Source: an uncultured Clostridia bacterium (lineage in GTDB: Bacteria; Bacillota; DTU014). From it: a stretch of 64,000 bases of DNA. Positions 16,116 through 51,258 of this stretch are shown here, piece by piece; position 1 is the first letter of the stretch; every line of letters begins with the position of its first letter. A program made the translations under genes and the position numbers. The DNA lies in NCBI GenBank assembly GCA_900016865.1, contig FIZI01000005.1, forward strand, positions 37,895 through 101,894, given 5' to 3'. A model generated the notes under the pieces. It worked only from the letters and a program-made list of their open reading frames with translations, was not told the DNA's origin and did no database searches.

Positions 16116-18812
16116 TCACAAAGACCTAAGCTGCTCAAGCCGTTTGACGACCGCTTCGCGTTTTTCAACGCTATCTCTGCGACGCTGCCGCTCTCTCTCT
16201 ACCACTTCGGCAGGAGCTTTTTTGACAAAGCCCTCGTTCGCGAGCTTGCGGTCAAACATCTCAATCTCAGCGTCTAGCTTAGCCAGCTCGCTTTCGAGAC
16301 GCTGAGTCTCCTTGGCTATGTCAACCAGCCCGACCAGGGGCAGATAGATCTGCAGCCCAGGCACTATGGCCGCAGCGGCGTTATCAGGTTCACTGGTCTC
16401 CCCCGGCCGTATCTCTAGGTCGGATATCCCAGCAAGCACCTTCAAGAGATCCTGGTCCCTCTCAACAATCGCGCACCGCTGCGAATCTCCCTGCAAGATC
16501 GCTGGAACTCTTCGTGCGGGCTCGACGTTCATCTCTGCCCTGACATTCCTCACCGCGCGAACGAGGTCCATCAAAACGCCGACCTCCGACTCTACCTCGA
16601 GGTCTCGTTGGCTCTCATCGACAACAGGCCACGGAGCGATGACGATCGACTCACCTTCGTGCGGGAGGCGCTGCCAGATCTCTTCAGTTATGAAAGGCAT
16701 GAACGGGTGCAGGAGCCTCATGGTGTGTTCTAGCACGTGCGAAAGGGTAGCCTGAGCGACTCGTCTGCTCTCGTCGCCGCGCTTCCCATAGAGTCTCGGC
16801 TTGACCATCTCAATATACCAGTCGCAAAGCTCTCCCCAGATGAACTCATATATGACTCGAGCAGCTTCACCTAGGTCAAACCGCGTGAGGAACCGAGTGA
16901 CCTCAGAAATCGCGTTGTTCAAACGAGATAGGATCCATCGGTCCTCCGTCTCAAGTGCCAAGTCGGCCAAGCTTGTCACTGACCCCGGGTCATAATCCCC
17001 AAGGTTCATCAGAGCAAACCGACTTGCATTCCAAATCTTGTTGGCGAAGTTGCGCGATGCCTCTACTCGCTCATCATAAAACCTCATGTCGTTGCCCGGA
17101 GCATTGCCAGTGACCAAGGTGAATCTGAGGCTGTCTGCTCCCACCTCGTCTATGACCTCAATCGGGTCAACTGAGTTACCTAGGGATTTGCTCATCTTCC
17201 GGCCTTCGCCATCTCTTAGCAGCCCGTGTATGAACACTGTCCTAAACGGCACGTCGTTCATAAACTCGAGGCCCATAAAGACCATGCGCGCGACCCAGAA
17301 AAAGATGATGTCGTAACCCGTAACAAGGACTGACGTGGGATACCAATGCTCGAGCTCCTCTGTCTGATCAGGCCACCCCATGGTCGAAAACGGCCAAAGT
17401 GCGGAGCTAAACCACGTATCCAGTACATCAGGGTCTTGGAATATGTCCACACTTCCGCAGTGCGAACACTCTGTAGGATCTTGGCGGGCCACTGTCATTT
17501 CAGAGCAATCACGGCAGTACCATACCGGTATGCGGTGCCCCCACCAAAGCTGCCTGGAAATACACCAATCATGAATGCCTTCCAGCCAGTTGGTGTAGAT
17601 CTTTGCAAAGCGTTCGGGGACAAATCGTATGCGCCCGTCTTGAACTGCCTTGAGCGCGGGCTCTGCCAGCGGCTTCATCTTGACGAACCACTGTTCTGAG
17701 AGATACGGCTCAACCACAGAGTCGCATCTCTGGCAGTGGCCGACCGAATGCTGGTGGTCCTCTAGCTTCACCAGAAGTCCCAACTTGTCCAACTCAGCGA
17801 GGATAGACTTGCGGCACTCGTAGCGGTCCATTCCAGCCATAGGCCCTGCCTCGTCGGTCATCCTGCCGTCCGGCCCTATGACTGTGATCTGCTCAAGGTT
17901 GTGTCTCAATCCTACCTCGAAGTCGTTTGGATCGTGTGCGGGAGTTATCTTGACCGCGCCTGTTCCAAACTCCGGATCGACGTATTCATCTGCGATGATC
18001 GGGATCCTGCGGTTCATGACAGGCAGGATGGCTGTCTTGCCGACGAGATCTTTGTACCGTTCGTCTGCAGGGTTGACCGCCACTGCTGTATCACCTAGGA
18101 TCGTCTCTGGCCGCGTGGTTGCGACGGTGATGTATCCGGACCCGTCCTCCAGCGGGTACTTGACGTAGTGAAGCCTGCCTGCAGTATCGGAGTACTCCAC
18201 CTCAATGTCCGACAAGGCAGTCTGGCATCTAGGGCACCAGTTGATGATTCTTGTGCCCTTGTATATGAGGCCTTTTTCAAACAGGCGCACGAATACCTCT
18301 CGGACAGCCCTGGAGCAACCCTCGTCCATGGTAAAGCGCTCTCTGTCCCAGTCGCAGGATGAGCCCAGACGCTGAAGCTGACCTATGATGCGATTGCCAA
18401 ACCGCTCTTTCCACTCCCAGACGTGCTTCAAGAACTCCTCACGGCCCAAATCATGTCTCGATACGCCCATGGTCTCACGAAGGTGTTCCTCGACCTTCAC
18501 CTGAGTAGCGATGCCTGCATGATCGGTCCCCGGTATCCACACAGTGTTATGCCCCTGCATCCGGTGCCATCTCACGAGTATGTCTTGAAGGGTCTCATCG
18601 AGCGCATGACCCAGGTGCAAATGGCCGGTCACATTGGGCGGTGGAATTACCATGCTAAAGGGTGTGTTGCTCTTGTCCACTTCAGCATGGAAATATCCCT
18701 TCTCAATCCAATACCGGTACCATTTGTCCTCCACGTCTGCAGGATTGTACCTCATACTTAACTGTGTATCTCCCATATAGATCACTCCGATCATGTTGTC
18801 TACGACACTCAC
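16116..18812 (-). CDS. valS: valyl-tRNA synthetase
   Basis: PPPNVTGHLHLGHA (HIGH) and KMSKSLGN (KMSKS) motifs, editing domain and C-terminal coiled coil. The start may be the ATG at 18776 (SD GGAGTGA) rather than GTG 18812. Confidence 0.95.
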   Translation of the reverse strand: MSVVDNMIGVIYMGDTQLSMRYNPADVEDKWYRYWIEKGYFHAEVDKSNTPFSMVIPPPNVTGHLHLGHALDETLQDILVRWHRMQGHNTVWIPGTDHAGIATQVKVEEHLRETMGVSRHDLGREEFLKHVWEWKERFGNRIIGQLQRLGSSCDWDRERFTMDEGCSRAVREVFVRLFEKGLIYKGTRIINWCPRCQTALSDIEVEYSDTAGRLHYVKYPLEDGSGYITVATTRPETILGDTAVAVNPADERYKDLVGKTAILPVMNRRIPIIADEYVDPEFGTGAVKITPAHDPNDFEVGLRHNLEQITVIGPDGRMTDEAGPMAGMDRYECRKSILAELDKLGLLVKLEDHQHSVGHCQRCDSVVEPYLSEQWFVKMKPLAEPALKAVQDGRIRFVPERFAKIYTNWLEGIHDWCISRQLWWGHRIPVWYCRDCSEMTVARQDPTECSHCGSVDIFQDPDVLDTWFSSALWPFSTMGWPDQTEELEHWYPTSVLVTGYDIIFFWVARMVFMGLEFMNDVPFRTVFIHGLLRDGEGRKMSKSLGNSVDPIEVIDEVGADSLRFTLVTGNAPGNDMRFYDERVEASRNFANKIWNASRFALMNLGDYDPGSVTSLADLALETEDRWILSRLNNAISEVTRFLTRFDLGEAARVIYEFIWGELCDWYIEMVKPRLYGKRGDESRRVAQATLSHVLEHTMRLLHPFMPFITEEIWQRLPHEGESIVIAPWPVVDESQRDLEVESEVGVLMDLVRAVRNVRAEMNVEPARRVPAILQGDSQRCAIVERDQDLLKVLAGISDLEIRPGETSEPDNAAAAIVPGLQIYLPLVGLVDIAKETQRLESELAKLDAEIEMFDRKLANEGFVKKAPAEVVERERQRRRDSVEKREAVVKRLEQLRSL

Positions 18813-23006: not shown

Positions 23007-23188
23007 AGATAAGCGAAAGGAGCTTCGACCGCCTCAAGACGTAAGAAGCTCCCGCGTAACCAATATGGTCTTGCCCGAACTCGCCTTATAAAAGAGCTCG
23101 CAGCGATACCCATCGCACGCGGCAACGGGCCGGTCTCGGACCGCATTGTTTCAGTTTGCTACCATACTACAGGACTCTAAACTGCTTG

Positions 23189-23779
23189 TCAATCCAACCA
23201 GATGATACGGCCTCGCTTCCGAACTGCGACCACTCTGCCTAGGATCTCAGATAGAGGTCGAGGGCCGACATCCTTGAAGCTGCTGTCAGGCCCTTCTGAC
23301 GGGTCGTTCGCAAGCAAATACACACAGCCTTCGGGCACAACACCCTCCTGGGTGACGCTGGTATGAGCCCCTAAGCTGCTGCTTCTGACTGGAATCGGAT
23401 CGCCCGCGACCGCCGCTACCTTTCGAACTACCAGGCGCCTTTCCTCGTCTGCAGACGTATCCTCGTCGTCCTCTGAGCTGTCTACTCTGTCCGAATCCGG
23501 ATCCTCAGAAGATGAGCCTTCGGCAGCTTCGGGCGCCCCAACTGATGCAACATCCCAGCTGGCGCACTTAATCGAGGCGACAACTATATCTCCCGTTTTG
23601 ACCGGGCGGTCTGTATCTCCCGTATCAGCTGCGACTATATCGCCTGCCTTGAGTTCGGGCGCCATAGCGTTGTTCGACATTTTGAAGGTTGTGATAGACA
23701 AGCCGCTCTTGAGCGCTATGCTCAGTCGCAGGCGCAGGCACAGCCAAACAAGGAACCTGTATTTCCGGCTAGTCTCCAT
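23189..23779 (-). CDS. S24/S26-clan (SipW/Sec11- or LexA-like) peptidase homolog with acidic Ser/Asp/Glu-rich insertion
   Basis: The N-terminal hydrophobic anchor is followed by NNAMAPELKAGDIV, which aligns to the SGSMEPxxxxGDIL box B/C. A 30-aa insert is AEGSSSEDPDSDRVDSSEDDEDTSADEE. Confidence 0.55.
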   Translation of the reverse strand: METSRKYRFLVWLCLRLRLSIALKSGLSITTFKMSNNAMAPELKAGDIVAADTGDTDRPVKTGDIVVASIKCASWDVASVGAPEAAEGSSSEDPDSDRVDSSEDDEDTSADEERRLVVRKVAAVAGDPIPVRSSSLGAHTSVTQEGVVPEGCVYLLANDPSEGPDSSFKDVGPRPLSEILGRVVAVRKRGRIIWLD

Positions 23780-23845
23780 TTATACTTTCGCTCCAGTGCA
23801 CAGATAGACACAGGGCCGGCAGAACCGGCCCGAAGTCAGCGGAAA

Positions 23846-25918
23846 TCAGCCTTCTCGCTCTTTCTTGGCTTCCTCAATCACTTTCTCTGCGATGTGATCC
23901 GGAACCTCTTCGTAGTCGTGGAACTCCATAGTGAAGTCTCCGCGAGCTTGGGTCATAGAGCGCAAATCAATGGCATACCGATACATCTCGGCAAGCGGAG
24001 CCATAGCCTTGATCACTTGGTATTCCCCGTCTGGTTCCATGCCGAGGATGCGACCCCTACGCTTGTTCATATCGCCCATGACATCGCCCATGTATGCTTC
24101 CGGAACCCGGATCTCGACATACATGACAGGCTCAAGAAGAACGGGCCTAGCAGTCTCCAATGCCTTCTTGATCGCTAACGAGGTGGCTATCTTAAACGCC
24201 ATTTCAGATGAGTCGACTGCGTGATAAGATCCATCCAACAATGTCACACGGACATTGACCATGGGGAATCCCGCATAGGGGCCTTCAGCAAAGGTCTCTT
24301 GAGCGCCCTTCTCGACAGCAGGGATGTAGTTTTTGGGCACTGCTCCTCCGAATATCTTGTCTACGAACTCGAACTCCTGGTCCTGGAGCGGCTCGATCTC
24401 GAGGATCACATGCCCGTACTGGCCTCTGCCTCCGGTCTGTTTCTTGTGTTTGCCCTCACCCTGCGCCTTTGCCCTTATGGTCTCTCTGTATGGGACCTTC
24501 GGCGAGCGCAACTCTATGTCTGCTCCAAACTTCTTCTTCAGGCGGGCCTTGACGATCTCGATGTGCAGTTCGCCCATACCGGAGATGAGAAGCTCTCTCG
24601 TCTCGGTGCTTCGCTCTACAGTAACAGTGGGGTCTTCCTCTGTAAGTCTGGCGAGACCGGACGCGATCTTGTCTTCGTCGCCCTTGGCGAGCGGGTAAGC
24701 AGCGAGAGTCAGTTTGGGTTTGGGGAACTCTATAGGAGGAAAGACCACCGCTGCGGATTTGTCCGCCAGTGTATCTGCTGTGGTCGTCTCATCAAGCTTG
24801 CCTACAGCAGCAATGTCGCCAGCGACCACTTCTTGGACCGGTATCTGCTCTTTGCCGAATGTCAAGAAGACCTGGCCAACTCTCTCTTCGACTCGCTTGG
24901 TCGCATTGAACACTGTGGAGTCGGACTTCAATGTCCCTGAGAACACTTTAAACAATGAAAGCTTGCCGACATAGGGGTCAGCCATGGTCTTGAAGACCAG
25001 TGCGCTAAACGGCCCTTCAGAGGATACTGGCCGCGAGATCTCGTCCTCGGTCCCTGGCTTCAGCCCAGTTGCCTCTCCCATTTGGTCCGGAGACGGACAG
25101 TATCCGGCAATGAAGTCAAGAAGCGTGGCTACTCCTACTGCTGAATGCGAAGAACCACACAGGACCGGCACCAACCTGCGCTTGAGAATCCCGTCCTTGA
25201 CTCCTGCTCGGACCTCTTCGGCAGTAAGCTCCTCGCCCTCGAGATATTTCATCAGTGCCTCATCATCATACTCTGCCGCCGCCTCAAGCAGAGGAGCCCT
25301 GTGCTCTTCGACCAGATCGGCCATATCTGCAGGGATCTCTGTCTCTTTGACGTTCTTTCCGTCAAATACATATGCTTTGAGCTCCACCAGGTCAACTACG
25401 CCCTTGAAGTCGGACTGAGACCCTATAGGCAGTTGAACTGCAGTGACTCTGTTGCCAAAGAGCTCGCGCATACGTGAGTACACCTTGTAGAAGTCCGCAT
25501 TCTCCCTGTCCATCTTGTTGACAAAGACCATCTGCGGGAGCTCCCGCTGATCAGCGAGCCTGTAGGTGCTCTCCGTCCCAACCTCTACTCCGGAGACGGC
25601 ACACACGACTGAGAGAGCACAGTCTGCAGCCCTGAGTCCGCTGACAACCTCACCTACAAAGTCCGTGTATCCTGGAGTGTCAATGATATTGACCTTTATA
25701 TCTTTCCATTCACAGGGGACGACCGAGGCGTTGATCGAAATCTGCCTCTTGACTTCCTCGGGATCGTGGTCAGACAGGGTGTTGCCTTCCTCGACCCTTC
25801 CCATCCTGGTCGTTTTGCCGCTCACATAGACCATGGCCTCAGTCAGAGTAGTCTTGCCGCACCCGCCATGACCAATCAGCCCGATGTTTCGAAGCTGTCC
25901 GGTCCCATACGTTTTCAA
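23846..25918 (-). CDS. elongation factor G paralog (EF-G2-like translational GTPase)
   Basis: Full five-domain EF-G architecture and length (690 aa). G1 is GHGGCGKTT, G3 is DTPGY and G4 is NKMD. The TTG start is preceded by GGGGAGG. Confidence 0.85.
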   Translation of the reverse strand: MKTYGTGQLRNIGLIGHGGCGKTTLTEAMVYVSGKTTRMGRVEEGNTLSDHDPEEVKRQISINASVVPCEWKDIKVNIIDTPGYTDFVGEVVSGLRAADCALSVVCAVSGVEVGTESTYRLADQRELPQMVFVNKMDRENADFYKVYSRMRELFGNRVTAVQLPIGSQSDFKGVVDLVELKAYVFDGKNVKETEIPADMADLVEEHRAPLLEAAAEYDDEALMKYLEGEELTAEEVRAGVKDGILKRRLVPVLCGSSHSAVGVATLLDFIAGYCPSPDQMGEATGLKPGTEDEISRPVSSEGPFSALVFKTMADPYVGKLSLFKVFSGTLKSDSTVFNATKRVEERVGQVFLTFGKEQIPVQEVVAGDIAAVGKLDETTTADTLADKSAAVVFPPIEFPKPKLTLAAYPLAKGDEDKIASGLARLTEEDPTVTVERSTETRELLISGMGELHIEIVKARLKKKFGADIELRSPKVPYRETIRAKAQGEGKHKKQTGGRGQYGHVILEIEPLQDQEFEFVDKIFGGAVPKNYIPAVEKGAQETFAEGPYAGFPMVNVRVTLLDGSYHAVDSSEMAFKIATSLAIKKALETARPVLLEPVMYVEIRVPEAYMGDVMGDMNKRRGRILGMEPDGEYQVIKAMAPLAEMYRYAIDLRSMTQARGDFTMEFHDYEEVPDHIAEKVIEEAKKEREG

Positions 25919-28730: not shown

Positions 28731-31187
28731 TTAGACTTGAAGCGATGCTCCTGACCCCTGATCGTGCACATTTTCTGTCATTGGTATGATCTCAGACCGA
28801 CCGCTGTCATCTGATGTTAGCCTGAAATCCCGAAGCGCCACGACAAGGACCTCATCCATGTGGTCTACAGTAACAAACGTCATCTCCTGCTTGATGTTGT
28901 CGGGAATTTCGTCTATGTCCCGTGCGTTCTCAGCAGGCAGTATGACTGTCCGTATTCCAGAACGGTGAGCAGCCAACACTTTCTCCTTCAAGCCGCCTAT
29001 AGGCAGCACCCGCCCTCTTAGGGTTATCTCTCCAGTCATGGCAACGTCACGGCGCACAGGTTTATCGGTCAAGGCGGAAACCAGCGCAGTCGCCATAGCG
29101 ATCCCGGCGGACGGGCCGTCTTTTGGTATGGCGCCCTCCGGCACGTGAATGTGAACGTCGTACTTCTCATGGAAGTCGGGATCCACTCCGAGGCTCTCGG
29201 CCCTGGATCTGACATAGGAGAATCCTGCTTGAGCAGACTCCTTCATGACGTCTCCAAGCTTGCCTGTAAGGTTGAGCTGGCCTTTGCCCTGCATCACACT
29301 GACCTCAATAGAAAGGATCTCGCCGCCTACCTCGGTCCAAGCCAGGCCTGTTGCGACACCCACTCTATCTTCAGATTCCATGACGCCAAACCTGTAGAGA
29401 GGTATTCCGAGGAATCTGTGGATGTTCTTTGGCAAGACCCTTATCGGCCTGCTGGCACCGCTAACTATCTCCTTTGCAGCCTTCCGCAGTACGGTCGCGA
29501 TCTTCCTCTCCAGCTCCCGCACTCCGGATTCACGAGTGTAGCTACGTATTATCTCACGTATGCTCTTCTCGCCTATAAAGACGTCCTTGTTGGTAAGGCC
29601 GTTTTCTCTCAACTGATTCGGCAAGAGGTGCCTCAATGCGATTTGCACCTTCTCGTCCTCAGTGTACCCGGGAATCCTGATTATCTCCATCCTGTCCCGC
29701 AGTGCATGAGGGATGTCGTAAAGCACGTTGGCTGTAGTGATGAACATCACGTCAGACAAGTCCACGGTGACCTCCATGTAGTGGTCACTGAAGTTGCAGT
29801 TTTGCTCCGGATCCAGCACTTCGAGCAGGGCCGAAGCGGGATCGCCTCTGAAGTCTGACGCCAGCTTGTCAATCTCATCCAGAAGTATCACAGGGTTGGA
29901 GGTCCCCGCTTGCTTCATCGCTTGGATGATCCGTCCAGGCATCGCACCTACGTACGTCCTACGGTGCCCTCTAATCTCCGCCTCGTCTCGGACGCCTCCC
30001 AACGAAAACCGGACGAACTTGCGGCCGAGTGCACGTGCGATTGACTTACCCAGTGATGTCTTGCCGACACCCGGAGGACCGACGAAACAAAGGATTGGCC
30101 CCCGGATCTTCTTGGTCAGCTGTCGCACTGACAGGTACTCAAGAATCCTCTCTTTGACCTTGTCAAGGCCATAGTGATCCTCGTTGAGGATGCGCTCTGC
30201 CTGCTTGATGTCAAGTCCATCTTCTGTCTTGACACTCCACGGGTAGGAAATGAGCCAGTCGAGGTAATTGCGAACCACAACAGCCTCTGCGACCATAGGA
30301 GGCATGCGTTCAAGCCTGTCTATCTCTTTTTGGGCCTTTTCGAGGGCTTCCTCAGGCATGCCCAGGCTCTCGACTTTCTCTCTCAGCTCAGCTATTTCCT
30401 GAGCGCGGTCGTCTCTATCTCCGAGCTCTTTCTGAATAGCCTTAAGCTGCTCGCGCAGGTAGTACTCCCGCTGTGTCCTCTCCATCTGCTTGCGAACACG
30501 GGAGTGGATCTTCCTCTCCAGCTCCAGGATCTCTATTTCCTTCATGAGAAGCATGCAGACCTTCTCGAGGCGCTCCTTAGGCGAAAGGCATTCGAGAACA
30601 GCCTGTTTTTGATCAACTTTCAGGGGCAAATGCGAAGCTATGTCATCAGCCAACCTGCCCGGTTCCTCTATGCTGGACACCGACACCAGGATCTCAGGGG
30701 GAATCTTCCTGTTTAGCTTCACGTACTCCTCGAAATGGCGAAGAGCAGTTCGCATCAGAGCCTCGATCTCCCTGTCCACTGTCTTGGGATCAACGACCGA
30801 CGATATCTTGACCCTGAAATGCGGATCATTCTGAACGTAGTCAAGAATCTGAACTCTCACTATCCCCTCAACAAGGATACGGATAGTTCCCTCGGAGATC
30901 TTCGCCAGCTGCTTAACCTCTGCCACAGTACCAACACTGTGAATACCGTCCGGGCTCGGGTCTGGCTCGCGAGTCTCCTTTTGAGCTGCCAAAACAATCA
31001 GCCTGTTATTCATCATCGCGTCTTCCAGCGCACTTACCGACTTCTCTCTACCGACGTCCAACGGAACAGTCATATATGGAAAAACCAGCATGCCCCGGAG
31101 CGCAAGCAACGGCAAAACATCTATGTTCGCAATATTCTGATCGAGATCGCTGTCAGCCAGCTCTCTGTTTGCGCTTTCCGCTGCCAA
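28731..31187 (-). CDS. lon: ATP-dependent protease Lon (LonA)
   Basis: N-terminal LON domain, AAA+ GPPGVGKTS and protease [14 protein letters not shown] motifs. Confidence 0.95.
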
Positions 31188-31399
31188 TCTATTCAGCCTC
31201 CTCCCAGCACACCGCTACCGAGTGATCGGTCTCTATTGATGCAAAATGCAGACATACAGCCACAATGTCTTCTTCTCGTATGATAGCGGTTATCCTCTGA
31301 TAACTGCGCGGACACATGCTGCCATCTGCAGCATTTACCTCCACATCAGGATGCAGTCGGCATCCCAAGGCGCCGCTGCTATCCAAAATCTATATTACC

Positions 31400-33046
31400 T
31401 CAAACAAGAATCGATTTCATCAAGGATCTGTCTGCCCCTCTAAAGGCCTCTCCGATTGCCTGCTCAATCGTTGACACTGGGATCACTTCTACACCTGTAT
31501 CGGACAGCATCTCTTGCCAGTTCTCCTGCGGTATCAAGACTTTCCTCGCGCCCGCACGCCTAGCCGCTTCGACTTTGGCTGGGATCCCGCCAACTGGTTT
31601 GATCACGCCTCGAATCGACACTTCTCCTGTCATAGCCATAGGAGTCGATATGGGCAGTCCCGTTATAGCCGAATACACCGAGCACGCCATAGTCAAGCCG
31701 GCCGATGGGCCGTCCACTGGATAGCCTCCTGGGAAGTTTACATGTATATCATAGTCCCTATAATCTATTCCAAAACACCTGCTGAGAACAGTCAGTACGT
31801 TCTGCATAGAATCCTGTGCCATGCTCCTACGCCTAAGGCGCATTCGGGAGCCGCCTATCTCCTCTTCCTCAACCAATCCGGTTGTGACAAGCCTTCCCGT
31901 ACCCTTTGCAACCGGGATTGAGCTCGTTTCTACCTCTATTACAACTCCTAGATTTGCTCCGATAACGCCGAGGCCATATGCAAGGCCAACAACTGGAGTT
32001 TGCACAATCTGACGGTCGGGCCTGGGATGATACTGCCCGCTGTTTATCACCCATTCTATCTCCTTAGCTGTTATCTTTTGCTTGCCCTCTGTTGTACAAA
32101 TACCTGCTGCTACCTGCAATAGGTTTACTGCCTCTCTCCCGTTTGTGGCGTATTTGCGTATCACCTCAATAGCCTGTCTCTCGACTTCGAAGCCTATCTT
32201 TGACGCGGCATTCAGTGCGATAGTCTCTATGTGATCAGGCCCTAGAGGTTTGAAGAACACCTCGAGGCACCTGGAGCGGATCGCAGGCGGTATCTCTTCG
32301 GGGCTTCGAGTCGTTGCTGCAACTAGTCGGAAGTCTGCGGGAAGGCCATTTTGGAAAATATCGTGGATGTGCCTCGGAATATTCGTATCTTCACTGTTGT
32401 AGTAGGCACTCTCAAGAAAGACCTTGCGGTCCTCCAACACTTTGAGGAGCTTGTTCATCTGGATAGGGTGGAGCTCCCCTATCTCGTCAATAAACAACAC
32501 ACCTCCGTGCGCCTTAGTGACTGCACCGGGCTTGGGTTGAGGAATTCCTGCAATGCCCAGCGGGCCAGCGCCTTGGTAGATGGGGTCGTGGACCGATCCC
32601 ATCAGCGGGTCCGCTATGCCTCTATCATCAAACCTGGCAGTAGTGGCGTCGATCTCTACGAACTTGGCGTCGCGCCTAAACGGTGAGAGCGGGCTCCTCT
32701 TCGCCTCCTCGAGCACCACCCTCGCAGCCGCCGTCTTTCCAATGCCCGGAGGGCCGTAGATGATAACGTGTTGAGGGTTGGGTCCACACAAAGCAGCGCG
32801 CAAGCTCTTGAGCCCTTCCTCCTGGCCGACTATGTCCTCAAAGCGCGATGGACGGGTCTTCTCAGCCAAGGGTACAGACAGCGAAATGCTCCGCAACCTG
32901 GCGAGCTGCTCCATCTGCTTGCTCGATTCCCTGTTCACAGCAGACTTGCTGGTCTGCTGGGCCTTTAGGAGATTCCAGAAGTATAAGCCAATGACGATTG
33001 CAAAGAAAAGATTGAGGAGGCCCAGAATACCCGTAAGCGAACTCAA
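31400..33046 (-). CDS. lonB: LonB-type ATP-dependent protease (sporulation Lon paralog) with N-terminal membrane anchor
   Basis: TM helix at the N-terminus, AAA+ GPPGIGKTA and DGPSAGLTM protease motif. Position between clpX and lon as in sporeformers. Confidence 0.85.
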   Translation of the reverse strand: MSSLTGILGLLNLFFAIVIGLYFWNLLKAQQTSKSAVNRESSKQMEQLARLRSISLSVPLAEKTRPSRFEDIVGQEEGLKSLRAALCGPNPQHVIIYGPPGIGKTAAARVVLEEAKRSPLSPFRRDAKFVEIDATTARFDDRGIADPLMGSVHDPIYQGAGPLGIAGIPQPKPGAVTKAHGGVLFIDEIGELHPIQMNKLLKVLEDRKVFLESAYYNSEDTNIPRHIHDIFQNGLPADFRLVAATTRSPEEIPPAIRSRCLEVFFKPLGPDHIETIALNAASKIGFEVERQAIEVIRKYATNGREAVNLLQVAAGICTTEGKQKITAKEIEWVINSGQYHPRPDRQIVQTPVVGLAYGLGVIGANLGVVIEVETSSIPVAKGTGRLVTTGLVEEEEIGGSRMRLRRRSMAQDSMQNVLTVLSRCFGIDYRDYDIHVNFPGGYPVDGPSAGLTMACSVYSAITGLPISTPMAMTGEVSIRGVIKPVGGIPAKVEAARRAGARKVLIPQENWQEMLSDTGVEVIPVSTIEQAIGEAFRGADRSLMKSILV

Positions 33047-33235
33047 AGAGCCATACCTCCGAGCTAGGGGTTGTTGTAAGAACCTTTCCAGCCCTATTGT
33101 TTCCCCAATAAGCTCGAATATCCGGCTCAGCCGCCAATAGAAGGCTCGTTGAGCGTATCGAAAGCGCTGTATTACAAAGAGGAGACAGCTCAGGCGGCCG
33201 TCTCGCTCTCAGTGCGTTCAACCTGCGGAGAAGAC

Positions 33236-34504
33236 CTAGGCAGTCTCTTCTTTTGTCTTTTTGCTCTTCTTCTCGTTCAGCATAATAATGGGCTCGGATT
33301 TGCCCTCTATGACTTCAGGAGTCACGACACACTTGCTGACGTCACTCCTTGAAGGTATATCAAACATCACATCCATCATGACGCCCTCGATAATGGAGCG
33401 AAGGCCGCGGGCCCCTGTCTTGCGCTCTATAGCTTTCCTCGCGATAGCAGTCAAAGTCTCCGGGAGGAACTCCAATTCCACTTTGTCGATTTCGAAGAAC
33501 TTCTGATACTGCTTGACGAGTGCGTTCTTTGGCTCCGTAAGAATGCGCACGAGATCCTCCTCTTTGAGGGGATCCAACGTGACGACTATCGGGAGACGTC
33601 CAATGAACTCGGGTATCAGCCCGTACTTGAGAAGGTCCTCAGGCATTACCTGCGACAAGATGGAGCCGATATCTTCGCTGTCCTTCTTGACAGGCTCTGA
33701 GCCAAAGCCGACCACTCTTTTTCCTACTCGAGAGGAGATTATCTTCTCCAGGCCGTCGAACGCCCCGCCGCATATGAACAGGATATTGGTGGTGTCAAGC
33801 TGTATGAACTCCTGATGAGGATGCTTTCGTCCACCCTGCGGAGGCACGCTTGCCACAGTGCCCTCAAGGATCTTGAGTAGCGCCTGCTGGACCCCCTCCC
33901 CGGAAACGTCTCTGGTGATCGACGGATTCTCCGACTTGCGAGCGATCTTGTCGACTTCATCGATGTATATGATGCCTCGCTCTGCCTTCTCGATGTCATA
34001 ATCCGCAGCCTGGATCAACTTGAGCAGTATGTTTTCAACATCTTCTCCTACATATCCGGCTTCTGTAAGGGAAGTCGCATCAGCGATTGCAAACGGTACC
34101 TTCAGGATCCTAGCCAAAGTCTGCGCGAGGAGGGTCTTACCACACCCGGTAGGCCCCAACATAATGATGTTGCTCTTCTGGAGTTCGACATCGTCAGTGC
34201 TAATTGGGTTGTTTATCCTCTTGTAGTGGTTATATACAGCGACCGAGAGCGCCTTCTTGGCCGCCTCCTGTCCAACTACGTATTGGTCAAGTATAGCCTT
34301 GATTTCCTTAGGCTTGGGCACGGAACTAAACTCCGCGTCGGCGCTCTCGGTTAGCTCTTCTTCGATGATCTCATTGCACAACTCGACGCACTCGTCGCAG
34401 ATGTACACACCGGGGCCGGCAATGAGCTTCCTTACCTGCTCTTGCATTTTGCCACAAAAAGAGCATTTTGGCTGACCCTTGTCGTCTCCAAATTTGAACA
34501 TCAA
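33236..34504 (-). CDS. clpX: ATP-dependent Clp protease ATP-binding subunit ClpX
   Basis: CSFCGK...C..C zinc-binding N-terminus, GPTGCGKT Walker A and a GRLP pore-region motif. Confidence 0.95.
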
Positions 34505-34514
34505 ATCACTCCTC

Positions 34515-35126
34515 TTAGGTCCTGAGTTCGCCGCCGCCGAATATGCCGTCGATTATCCCGTAGTCTTTGGCTTCCTGCGAGGACATAAAGAGGTTTCGAT
34601 CCATATCGCGCTCGATCTTCTCTCTAGGCCTCCCGGTATGCTTTGCCATAATCTCGTATGTGATCTCTCTGAGATTGAGAATCTCTCGAGCCTGTATCTG
34701 CACGTCTGTCGCTTGGCCTCTAGCTCCGCCCCAGGGCTGGTGTATCATGATGCGAGAATACGGCAGCGCATAGCGCTTGCCCTTTGTCCCGGCTGCCAGC
34801 AAAAGTGCTGCCATGCTTGCAGCCATGCCAACGCAGGTAGTTGACACGTCAGGCTTGATATACTGCATCGTATCGTATATCGCCAAACCGGAATAGACGA
34901 CACCGCCCGGGCTGTTGATGTACAGGTTGATATCTTTGTCCGGATCCTCACTCTGCAGGTAAAGCAATTGCGCTATGACCAGGTTTGCCACATAGTCGTC
35001 AATTGGCCCACCTATGAATATGATGCGCTCCTTCAAGAGCATAGAATAGATGTCATACGCGCGTTCGCCCCTTGCAGTCTGTTCCACAACGACTGGAACC
35101 AGCGCAGAGCCCAGTAGATCTGCCAT
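34515..35126 (-). CDS. clpP: ATP-dependent Clp protease proteolytic subunit
   Basis: GMAASMAA (Ser) and IMIHQP (His) catalytic motifs. Confidence 0.95.
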
Positions 35127-35239
35127 GGTACCACTCCTCCGGATTACTGGCCGTTCGTGATAATCGGCCTTTCACCTAACATCTTACCGCAAAACCGGCA
35201 ACCCTTCCACAATAACATGTCTCAGCCCAGTAACAGATC

Positions 35240-36544
35240 TCAGCCGACGACTATCCGCATTGACGCATAATCCTTTAGCTTAGCCACTGTCTTCTCTATG
35301 CGAAGCGACTCCTTGAGAGAATCCATTCGATCCTCTTTCTCATACAGCTCCTTGAGCTCATCGACAGACCTCGAATACTGCTCTGCCAGTTCGGATAGCT
35401 TCTGATCGACGTCTTCATCTGTTACCTCGATACCTTCAGCCCTAGATACCGCGTCAAGAACCAAATCGATCTTGACTTGCTTCTCCGCCTCGGGAGCGAA
35501 CTCGTCTCTCAGCTGCTGCTCAGTCATCTCGCGCATCTGCAGGTACTGCTCCAGGGTCATCCCTGAATAGCGCAGTCTGATAGACAGCTGATCCATCATC
35601 CTGTCGACTGTCCGATCAACCAGTATCTTGGGTATGTCAACACTGCATCTGTCAGCGACCTCTGAAGTCACCTTGTCCTCGAACTCTCTCTCGGCTCTTG
35701 CTGCTGCCTCGCTCTCCAAGCGCTCTTTGATAGCAGATCGCAGCTCATCCAGACTCTCGTAGTTGCCAACGTCCTTGGCAAACTCGTCGTCGAGTTCAGG
35801 CAGGCGCTTCTCCCTTATGTCGTTTAGTTTTACCTTAAACCTCGCGTCCTTACCTGCAAGTTCGCTGCTGTGGTAGTCATCCGGGAACTTGACGGAGATC
35901 TCTCGTTCCTCTCCGACAGCCATACCGACCAACTGATCCTCAAAGCCAGGTATGTAGGAGTTGCTGCCTATCTCGAGAGTCGCGCCTTTGTGAGAAAGCC
36001 CTTCAGACTCTACACCCTCTACCGAACCCTCGAAGTCTATATCTGCGAAATCGCCTTTCTCAAGGGACGGTTTGTCAACGCTGACCAACTCAGCGAACCG
36101 CTCTCTCATTGAGTTGATGACATTTCGAACTTGCTCATCCGTTATCTCAACGGATTCCTTTTGAACTCGTACAGCCCTATAGTCACCCAATTCGACCTCG
36201 GGCAATACCTGAACCTTTGCCTTAAATGTGTAAGGGCTCCCTTCGACTAGGTCAGGCAGCTCGTCCACCACAGGCCTATCTATGGCTTGGATTCCTGACT
36301 TGTCCAAAGCCCGCTGGTACGCGTCCGGAATCAGGTCTTCGAGTGCCTGAGCAAGAATGGCCTCCTTGCCGAACCTCATCTCTAACACCCTGCGCGGGGC
36401 TTTTCCCTTTCTAAAGCCGGGGATATTGACTCCGCGGGCAATAGACCGAACTGCTTTCTTGACTGCCTCATCCACGTCCTCAGGAGGGACTGTCACGGTC
36501 ATCTGAACCTGATTGCCCTCTAGTTTCTCGACCGACACATCCAC
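35240..36544 (-). CDS. tig: trigger factor
   Basis: GFRKGKAP ribosome-binding signature, PPIase domain and C-terminal arm. Confidence 0.95.
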   Translation of the reverse strand: MDVSVEKLEGNQVQMTVTVPPEDVDEAVKKAVRSIARGVNIPGFRKGKAPRRVLEMRFGKEAILAQALEDLIPDAYQRALDKSGIQAIDRPVVDELPDLVEGSPYTFKAKVQVLPEVELGDYRAVRVQKESVEITDEQVRNVINSMRERFAELVSVDKPSLEKGDFADIDFEGSVEGVESEGLSHKGATLEIGSNSYIPGFEDQLVGMAVGEEREISVKFPDDYHSSELAGKDARFKVKLNDIREKRLPELDDEFAKDVGNYESLDELRSAIKERLESEAAARAEREFEDKVTSEVADRCSVDIPKILVDRTVDRMMDQLSIRLRYSGMTLEQYLQMREMTEQQLRDEFAPEAEKQVKIDLVLDAVSRAEGIEVTDEDVDQKLSELAEQYSRSVDELKELYEKEDRMDSLKESLRIEKTVAKLKDYASMRIVVG

Positions 36545-50385: not shown

Positions 50386-51258
50386 TTACTCCTTGTCCTT
50401 GCCGGTTTTTTCGCTAGACTCTATGAGCTCATGCAATTTGGCAAGTGCAGCGGACAACCCGCCCACCTCATCGATCAAGCCTACCTCGACAGCCTCTGCA
50501 CCGACCATGACTGTACCTACATCCCGCACTAAGTCCCCTGTTCGAGTCATCAGCTCGCGGAACTTCTCTGCCTCGATTCGAGAATGTTTAGTGATAAAAC
50601 GTATCACCCTGTCCTGCATTTTGTCCAGATACTCATAGGTCTGAGGCACGCCTATGACAAGGCCTGCGAGTCTTATGGGATGGATGGTCATTGTAGCAGT
50701 GGGGGCAATAAACGAGTAGTCTGCGCTGACTGCTATCGGAATGGCGATCGAATGGCCTCCTCCAAGAACTAGTGACACTACCGGCTTTGAGAGGGTCACC
50801 AACAGTTCTGCGATGGCCAGCCCTGCGTCAACGTCCCCTCCTACGGTGTTCAAGACGACGAGGACGCCCTTTATGCTCGGGTCCTGCTCTATTGCCACCA
50901 GCTGGGGAATGATGTGTTCGTACTTGCTTGTCTTGTTTTGAGGAGGGAGGACCAAGTGTCCCTCGATCTGCCCGATTATGGTCACGCAGTGGATCTCAGA
51001 TCTGTGAGCTCCTAGAGGTGGCGTTTGGCCCATTTGTTTCACTGACTCCATGGTCGATTGGGCCGAGTAATCCCTGTTCTCCTCAACATTCTCTTTGCGC
51101 TCAGCATTGGATGCCCTGCTTCTGCCTGGATCTGCAGTGGCTCTCCTCCCGCCGATCTGCTCGGACAGAGCAGAATCCTTGCCTGATAGCAGCAACTGAG
51201 TGTGCATACTCTCCGGAGTCATGAAATCACCATCTTTCCATATATAAAAGGCGTACAC
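50386..51258 (-). CDS. ClpP-family protein (TepA/translocation-enhancing protein-like)
   Basis: ClpP fold with a GGGHSIAI Ser and a MTIHPI His region. The N-terminal extension is non-homologous; an alternative start is ATG 51222 (SD GGTGA). Confidence 0.7.

Follow-up and report, generated by a model that had tools for sequence, protein, structure and literature searches.

Signal peptidases (SPases) are the enzymes that clip signal peptides. Two inactive homologs of the type I enzymes (peptidase family S26), SipA and SpsA, have been described. Both are membrane-anchored, lie beside pilus genes or beside an active paralog, and work by a mechanism that is still obscure. SipA (LepA), a pilus-assembly protein of Streptococcus pyogenes (PDB 4n31, 4k8w), has the S26 fold without the Ser-Lys dyad. 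It possesses a peptide-binding cleft and shows no activity, and its residues Asp48 and Gly85 occupy the Ser90 and Lys145 sites of the dyad (PMC4049620). SpsA of Staphylococcus aureus is an S26 paralog that lacks both catalytic residues and is dispensable as a peptidase (PMC12445088). The gene described here, referred to as the S26-like gene, lies in a 64-kb window (the whole stretch of DNA that was analysed) from an uncultured Clostridia bacterium. Its sequence suggests that it encodes a non-catalytic protein of the type I SPase fold, a pseudo-peptidase, which probably binds peptides rather than cutting them. Pseudo-SPases as such are already known. What is new in this case is the apparent lack of a membrane anchor, an acidic insert, and an exchange of Lys-Arg for Arg-Lys at the general-base position, all found in a very small uncultured lineage.

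The open reading frame (ORF) begins with an ATG that is directly preceded by an in-frame stop codon. All the strings quoted by a first-pass annotation of this DNA are present in the 196-residue product: KMSNNAMAPELKAGDIVAAD corresponds to residues 33-52, VVRKV to residues 117-121, and AEGSSSEDPDSDRVDSSEDDEDTSADEE is contained within an insert spanning residues 76-112. That annotation had proposed homology to the SPase/LexA fold, to be checked with the Pfam models of families S24 and S26, and the homology is borne out. Peptidase_S26 (PF10502) matches the protein with 28.7 bits (gathering score 22.9, E = 1.5e-6), whereas Peptidase_S24 (PF00717) gives 18.2 bits, under its threshold of 23.3. The NCBIfam model of the active bacterial signal peptidase I equivalog, TIGR02227, scores 29.3 bits and does not reach its cut-off of 47. 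Among 1.84e9 representative sequences, a profile of the gene family recovers about 270 S26 proteins with E <= 1e-3, and a profile made from 88 retrieved S26 proteins together with the family matches SPase I structures with E-values of 1e-38 to 1e-28. The S26 relationship is statistically real, and the protein is a homolog of P-type type I SPases.

Among PDB sequences, SipA is the sole match of the family profile, and a marginal one (E = 0.07); a search of the same sequences with the single protein returned only low-complexity noise from the acidic run. A first AlphaFold model, built from an alignment of 10 family sequences, was unreliable, with a predicted local distance difference test (pLDDT) value of 60, and it was replaced by a model built from 97 sequences. 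The best structural matches of this model, which leans toward the S26 fold because canonical S26 proteins dominate its alignment, are S. pyogenes SipA and Escherichia coli LepB. Membership in the LexA/UmuD-like S24 family is not supported: the score is below the PF00717 cut-off, there is no nucleophile Ser, and S24 structures match the model more weakly than S26 structures do. The C-terminal domains of the S24 proteins LexA, UmuD and lambda CI nevertheless have the same superfamily fold as the S26-like protein. The S24 proteins are cytoplasmic and soluble.

Comparison with the active P-type enzymes (E. coli LepB, Bacillus subtilis SipS and S. aureus SpsB) shows the same fold, the same order of boxes B to E, and conserved hydrophobic columns of the substrate groove. 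The S26-like protein differs from these enzymes in that the nucleophile, the general base and the residues supporting the base are replaced, the anchor is apparently missing, and an acidic insert separates boxes C and D (Table 1). Three independent alignments (MAFFT, hmmalign with 158 sequences, and HMMER against SipA) place Ala38 in the nucleophile column. This column of the hmmalign alignment is occupied by Ser in 108 of the 158 sequences and by Ala in all 10 members of the family; in the HMMER alignment of the family profile with SipA, Ala38 pairs with Asp48. The general-base column holds Lys in 110 of the 158 sequences and an invariant Arg119 in the family, and HMMER aligns this arginine with Gly85 of SipA. 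Lys120 sits one column later, where Arg is usual, so that the customary KR is changed into RK. It is found in nine of the 10 family sequences, the relative P0009 having Arg. Box E is altered as well. Canonical homologs with the Ser/Lys pair have Gly (94 of 96) and Ser (90 of 96) in the two columns where the family has an invariant Ala157 and an invariant Gly163. The corresponding Gly272 and Ser278 of the E. coli enzyme support the catalytic Lys, which Ser278 stabilises (PMC4049620). As judged from the alignments, four active-site positions, Ala38, Arg119, Ala157 and Gly163, are replaced in concert.

Table 1. Positions of the S26-like gene, its parts and its nearest neighbours in the 64-kb window
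Feature	Residues	Positions	Strand	Remarks
S26-like gene, putative pseudo-peptidase	196 aa	23189..23779	(-)	ORF; PF10502; nine ortholog clusters; omega ~0.1-0.14
Putative remodelled former membrane anchor, RKYRFLVWLCLRLRLSIALK	1-33	23681..23779	(-)	Arg-rich, highly conserved
Box B, TFKMSNNAMAPELKAGD	31-47	23639..23689	(-)	Ala38 codon (23666-23668) at the nucleophile Ser position
Box C, GDIVVASIK	63-71	23567..23593	(-)	aligned to the S26 consensus GDxVVF
Acidic Ser/Asp/Glu-rich insert	76-112	23444..23554	(-)	predicted disordered, pLDDT 53-63; between boxes C and D
Box D, ERRLVVRKVAAVAGD	113-127	23399..23443	(-)	Arg119-Lys120 (23420-23425) in place of Lys-Arg
Variable loop at the place of the 'cap' domain of true SPases	132-146	23342..23386	(-)	length varies
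Box E, VPEGCVYLLANDPSEGPDSS	148-167	23279..23338	(-)	Ala157 for the Gly272 equivalent, Gly163 for the Ser278 equivalent
EFG II-type elongation factor G paralog, upstream neighbour		23846..25918	(-)	Tyr84 (25667-25669) at the catalytic His position
GC-rich hairpin GGGCCGG-N5-CCGGCCC, no U-tract		23813..23831	(-)	between the elongation factor G stop and the S26-like start
Sigma-70-like promoter TTGACA-17-TAGTAT for serC-serA		23164..23192	(-)	from a scan, 10/12 match

The alanine at the nucleophile position, the central claim of the first-pass annotation, is thus confirmed and is invariant among the relatives; no profile alignment places a different Ser at the catalytic site, the result that the annotation had named as refuting it. 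The loss goes further than had been proposed, because the Lys and the equivalents of Gly272 and Ser278 are replaced too. Two subsidiary suggestions did not hold. The VVRKV string had been taken for the region of the SipW/Sec11 general-base His. It is part of a P-type box D with the consensus KRVxGxPGD, and a His-type SipW/Sec11 reading of the protein was rejected on account of this fit. A Lys partner for an S24-type dyad had also been left open, but the exact column is that of Arg119, and Lys120 is shifted and replaced by Arg in P0009.

The replacement of the catalytic pair by Ala and Arg occurs elsewhere. Among the distant profile matches, 14 S26 homologs outside the family share it. They come from metagenome-assembled genomes (MAGs) of Clostridia (for example, P0020 from Lachnospiraceae, P0062 from Anaerovoracaceae, and P0023) and keep hydrophobic anchors. 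None of the 14 retains the box E Ser, and only four retain the Gly. Of the genomic contexts seen, one is the end of an SpaA-pilin/sortase operon, one is beside a sortase gene, one is a tandem with a canonical Ser/Lys S26 gene, and one is uninformative. Pilin, sortase and tandem active-S26 contexts indicate that the Ala/Arg pattern goes with non-catalytic roles, and the Clostridia homologs are probably analogues of SipA and SpsA that have been mis-annotated as enzymes. Three of them, at L017 6001-6549, L015 5001-5552 and L019 6001-6561, carry the automatic name 'signal peptidase I'. The S26-like protein resembles these homologs in its AMxP motif and in the loss of the Gly272 and Ser278 equivalents. 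It differs from them in having RK rather than the RR of their RRV motif, in its apparent lack of an anchor and in its acidic insert, and the identity is 25-33%. The family scores 5-20 bits higher against a profile of the Ala/Arg homologs than against canonical S26 samples of equal size, which is a weak sign of a common origin.

The differences from the two described proteins are of a similar kind. Asp and Gly are found at the dyad positions of SipA, whereas the S26-like protein has Ala and Arg. A transmembrane helix and a pilin/sortase locus are found only for SipA, and the acidic insert only in the S26-like family. Pfam found no Sortase, SpaA or Cna_B domain in the 38 large ORFs of the window that were scanned, which span about 2.4-61.6 kb (large ORFs outside this span were left out), and no sortase or pilin domain is present in the called genes of the relatives' flanks. 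SpsA lies beside the active, essential SpsB and is membrane-anchored. The S26-like protein, in contrast, has apparently lost the anchor, and the S26 profile found no second S26 gene, neither in the 64-kb window nor in the relatives' flanks of 6-10 kb; a search of the window with a SipS query also found none. Nothing relevant on inactive SPase paralogs that are anchorless or cytoplasmic turned up in the literature search.

The family is small. In a collection of 5.8 billion proteins it comprises nine clusters at 90% identity, and a library clustered at 50% identity contains one full-length representative and one short fragment. With the family profile, the full-length representative scores 314 bits and the fragment 82, and the next matches, generic S26 proteins, begin at 54 bits. 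One GTDB species has the gene, namely the MAG 'Bacillota bacterium AS02xzSISU_7', which comes from an anaerobic digester; when GTDB genomes and contigs of JGI metagenomes were scanned for family motifs, no further lineage appeared.

Within this family the gene is kept by purifying selection, with omega of about 0.1-0.14. Nonsynonymous divergence (pN) among four lineages is 0.20-0.25 against a saturated synonymous divergence (pS) of 0.73-0.81, and omega for the least diverged pair is 0.136, compared with 0.069 for the adjacent gene of elongation factor G (EF-G). All lineages, which come from independent metagenomes, have an intact reading frame, and 55 columns are invariant although the synonymous sites are saturated. 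The replaced positions are among those conserved at the protein level: Ala38 is encoded by GCT, GCC or GCG and Arg119 by CGA, AGG or CGC depending on the lineage, all four Gly codons are used for Gly163, and synonymous turnover is seen at Ala157 as well. Boxes B (13 of 17 columns), D and E are where the invariant columns concentrate, and residues 48-75 contain only six in 28. According to these alignments, conservation is highest in the N-terminal segment and in the region of the former active site and groove. Selection on the catalytically dead region itself points to a binding function that has been retained rather than to decay.

Residues 1-33 occupy the position of the membrane anchor of the homologs, yet the segment is not hydrophobic. 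Arg18, in its middle, is invariant, Arg16 is kept in nine of the 10 family sequences, and Trp12 is replaced by Lys, Arg, His or Gln in four relatives. A simple Hessa sum over the best 19-residue window gives +5.5 to +11 for the family, compared with a median of -0.2 for 138 other S26 matches. The mean Eisenberg hydrophobicity is -0.07, against 0.63-0.96 in the anchors of related proteins, and the maximum of the Kyte-Doolittle average over 19 residues (KD19) does not exceed 1.4 in the N-termini of the family. By these sequence-based measures, namely the KD19 maximum, the Hessa sum and the central Arg, the segment does not qualify as a transmembrane anchor. The helical moment is low (0.1-0.2), and the alternation of Leu and Arg at i/i+2 gives a β-strand moment of 1.04. 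Few parts of the protein are as strongly constrained as this segment. Its pN/pS of 0.17 with normal synonymous divergence indicates that it is translated and functional and is not an RNA element, and a translation start at Met34 was rejected because of the same constraint. The ancestral transmembrane anchor has, to judge by the hydropathy and the alignment, turned into an Arg-rich non-hydrophobic segment.

The poly-acidic insert, which the first-pass annotation had pointed out, is real in comparison with the S26 consensus, where it has no counterpart. It is about 37 residues long here and 20-50 residues in the relatives, in all of which it is acidic, with a net charge of -5 to -15 and an Asp/Glu/Ser/Thr content of 50-85%. 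Its pN/pS of 0.54 shows that the acidity is kept while the sequence drifts. The insert directly precedes the box D strand, which lines the substrate groove in true peptidases. The computed isoelectric point of the protein is 4.8 with the insert and 9.5 without it. The variable loop at residues 132-146 has a pN/pS of 0.98 and a low pLDDT.

The gene upstream encodes a protein with the full set of EF-G domains in Pfam, which scores 973 bits with the NCBIfam model NF009381 (cut-off 583). It thus has the five-domain EF-G architecture, and the gene does not belong to a str operon. The first-pass annotation had described it as co-oriented with the S26-like gene and as carrying Tyr in place of the catalytic His, and this description is accurate, the motif being DTPGY where DTPGH is usual. 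However, DTPG[YF] is found in 119 of the 120 nearest homologs listed, and the remaining one is a fragment. The G2 motif reads RQISI, and the RxxSI variant of G2 characterises the Clostridia subgroup of EFG II (PMC3150367). By its sequence, this EF-G is an ordinary representative of EFG II, a widespread paralog family that normally has Tyr or Phe at the His position.

The two genes had also been suggested to form a functional pair of pseudo-enzymes, with conservation of the pair across related genomes as the check. Their adjacency is conserved within the clade only, as part of a 15-kb block with the order Lon - class II ribonucleotide reductase - EFG II - S26-like - serC - serA - DUF1015 - valS. 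Since the whole block is syntenic in a clade in which the EF-G proteins are at least 80% identical, the adjacency is uninformative. In four other lineages, with EF-G identity of about 60%, there is no S26-like gene downstream of EFG II, and with the EF-G being an ordinary EFG II, the suggestion of a pair of pseudo-enzymes is not sustained. In three of these four outgroups EFG II is followed by a small charged ORF and then by ctsR-mcsA-mcsB-clpC, with a methyltransferase gene before the ctsR operon in one of the three; in the fourth, a DUF3792 gene lies downstream. The small ORF of these other Bacillota (L011 7194-7439, L024 7221-7454, L026 4253-4555) encodes 77-100 highly charged residues, is conserved (pairwise E about 1e-16), has no Pfam match and precedes the ctsR heat-shock operon. 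The idea that it is a remnant of the S26-like gene, or otherwise akin to it, was tested by comparison and did not hold, and the window contains no homolog of it. The recurring arrangement of EFG II, small ORF and ctsR, which the window lacks, may tell more about the biology of EFG II than the S26-like neighbour does.

The EF-G and S26-like genes are separated by 66 nt, and a scan detected no promoter-like site between them. The hairpin in this gap is present in all four lineages compared, with differing loops and stem lengths. It was not scored as an intrinsic terminator. Possible roles are stabilisation or processing of the transcript, or factor-dependent termination. The promoter of serC-serA overlaps the stop codon of the S26-like gene, is identical in sequence in L001, L004 and L007, and marks the 3' boundary of the unit. 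Because there is no promoter between the two genes and the serC promoter lies at the S26-like stop, co-transcription of the S26-like gene with EFG II is likely from the sequence; a joint function of the two products is unsupported.

Several observations on the surroundings stand apart from the S26-like gene. The serC-serA leader of the relatives L001 (6608-6876 (+)) and L007 is about 410 nt long and contains a T-box riboswitch (RF00230, 84.9 bits, E = 1e-18, slightly below the gathering score of 93). The corresponding leader in the window, 23007-23188 (-), is shortened to 185 nt and has no T-box match at E <= 1. What it retains is a degenerate remnant of the T-box sequence and, at the 3' side, the terminator-like hairpin GGGAGCTTC...GAAGCTCC with a T-run after it. 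The sequences suggest that tRNA-sensing control of serine biosynthesis may have been lost or remodelled in this lineage. In Bacillota, genes of aminoacyl-tRNA synthetases often have a T-box leader, and the Rfam scan of the window recognised none at valS (16116-18812 (-)). The same scan gave nothing at the gathering score in the 64 kb and nothing around the S26-like gene at E <= 1, and no tRNAs were found in the window. Directly upstream of the block formed by the reductase, EFG II and S26-like genes there is a proteostasis run, tig - clpP - clpX - LonB-like - lon, at 28731-36544 (-); the tig-clpX-lonB-lonA region of Bacillus has a similar order. A second, longer protein with the ClpP fold (290 residues) is encoded at 50386-51258 (-). 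PADLOC and PHROGs gave no matches, and there is hence no link to a defence system or a phage.

By combining these observations, it is possible to describe what the protein may do. In the reading that we favour, to which we assign a probability of about 60%, it is a soluble or peripheral cytoplasmic protein that binds peptides in the SPase groove without cleaving them. The groove would still hold an extended peptide uncut, as has been proposed for SipA. The protein would reside in the cytoplasm or on the periphery of the membrane rather than being a membrane-anchored ectoprotein, as its hydropathy suggests. Partner-binding or self-regulating elements might be provided by the basic strand at the N-terminus and by the acidic loop, which would act by binding a partner, by mediating oligomerisation, or by masking the groove of the protein itself. 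Several points weigh against this description. The conservation of the groove is judged from alignment columns, and the cytoplasmic compartment is suggested by hydropathy scales only. AlphaFold draws residues 3-24 as a helix, like the anchors of the homologs, from an alignment that is dominated by anchored proteins. The family is so tiny and shallow, with EF-G at least 80% identical throughout, that its genomic context says almost nothing about function, and the conserved hairpin could uncouple the expression of the S26-like gene from that of EF-G.

The same helix, together with SipA as the best structural match, fits an ordinary pseudo-peptidase of the SipA/SpsA type, anchored in the membrane with its domain outside the cell and acting on exported proteins such as pilins or in concert with an active SPase. 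In position, the N-terminal segment corresponds to the anchor of P0020 and other Ala/Arg homologs, and the KD19 maximum in the lineage of the window, 1.4, is just below the usual threshold. Such an anchor would have to accommodate Arg16 and Arg18 in its middle, a polar residue 12 in four relatives and a Hessa sum of +5.5 to +11, and neither the window scans nor the flanks of the relatives revealed a sortase, a pilin or a second S26 gene. Membrane anchors normally evolve fast, unlike this strongly constrained segment. We regard an anchored ectoprotein as unlikely, while giving it serious consideration. A remnant of a signal peptidase that is decaying without function is hardly credible. It would explain the missing catalytic residues and anchor, the near-neutral segments (pN/pS of 0.54 and 0.98) and the low scores with the S26 models, but it is contradicted by the intact frames in all lineages, by an omega of about 0.1-0.14 and by the 55 invariant columns in the face of saturated synonymous sites.

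The concerted loss of four active-site positions makes residual hydrolysis by a non-canonical pair, such as Ser35, Thr31 or Ser166 combined with Lys120 or Lys33, very improbable. In favour of such a pair, Ser35, Lys33, Asp165 and Ser166 do not vary in the family, and nine of the 10 sequences have Lys120; Lys120, however, is Arg in P0009, and the pattern of loss is shared with the sortase-linked and tandem pseudo-peptidases. In addition, absence of the box E Gly would clash with a catalytic Lys, and SipA is inactive despite a nearby Lys (PMC4049620). A functional partnership with a GTPase-impaired EFG II, such as a ribosome- or nascent-chain-associated factor co-expressed under stress, would agree with the co-orientation of the genes, their 66-nt gap free of a promoter or a U-tract terminator, and their adjacency in every member of the clade. 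The acidic loop could, speculatively, contact basic ribosomal surfaces, and a mycobacterial EF-G2 with the His to Tyr change is a slow or trapping factor (bioRxiv 10.64898/2026.05.25.727771). We nonetheless consider this partnership quite doubtful: four other lineages have EFG II orthologs (about 60% identity) without an S26-like neighbour, the adjacency belongs to a 15-kb syntenic block, and EFG II is far more widespread than the S26-like gene. A long shot of this kind would make the protein a cytosolic binder of signal peptides or nascent chains, its anchor turned into an amphipathic Arg/Leu strand and supplemented by the acidic loop; the protein would be co-expressed with a GTPase-impaired EF-G2 and act in stress on ribosomes or pre-secretory proteins.

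The analysis bears on annotation as well as on the biology of the family. Proteins with the Ala/Arg pair are automatically named 'signal peptidase I', a name to be treated with caution, and an EF-G of the Tyr type is a normal EFG II and not a local oddity. The S26-like family appears to go beyond SipA and SpsA in that the anchor has been remodelled, an acidic disordered loop has been gained, and the dead site is under selection. If the protein is indeed cytoplasmic, the peptide-binding groove of SPases would be reusable away from the membrane, and the S26-like protein would offer a small soluble model for the study of ligands of this groove.

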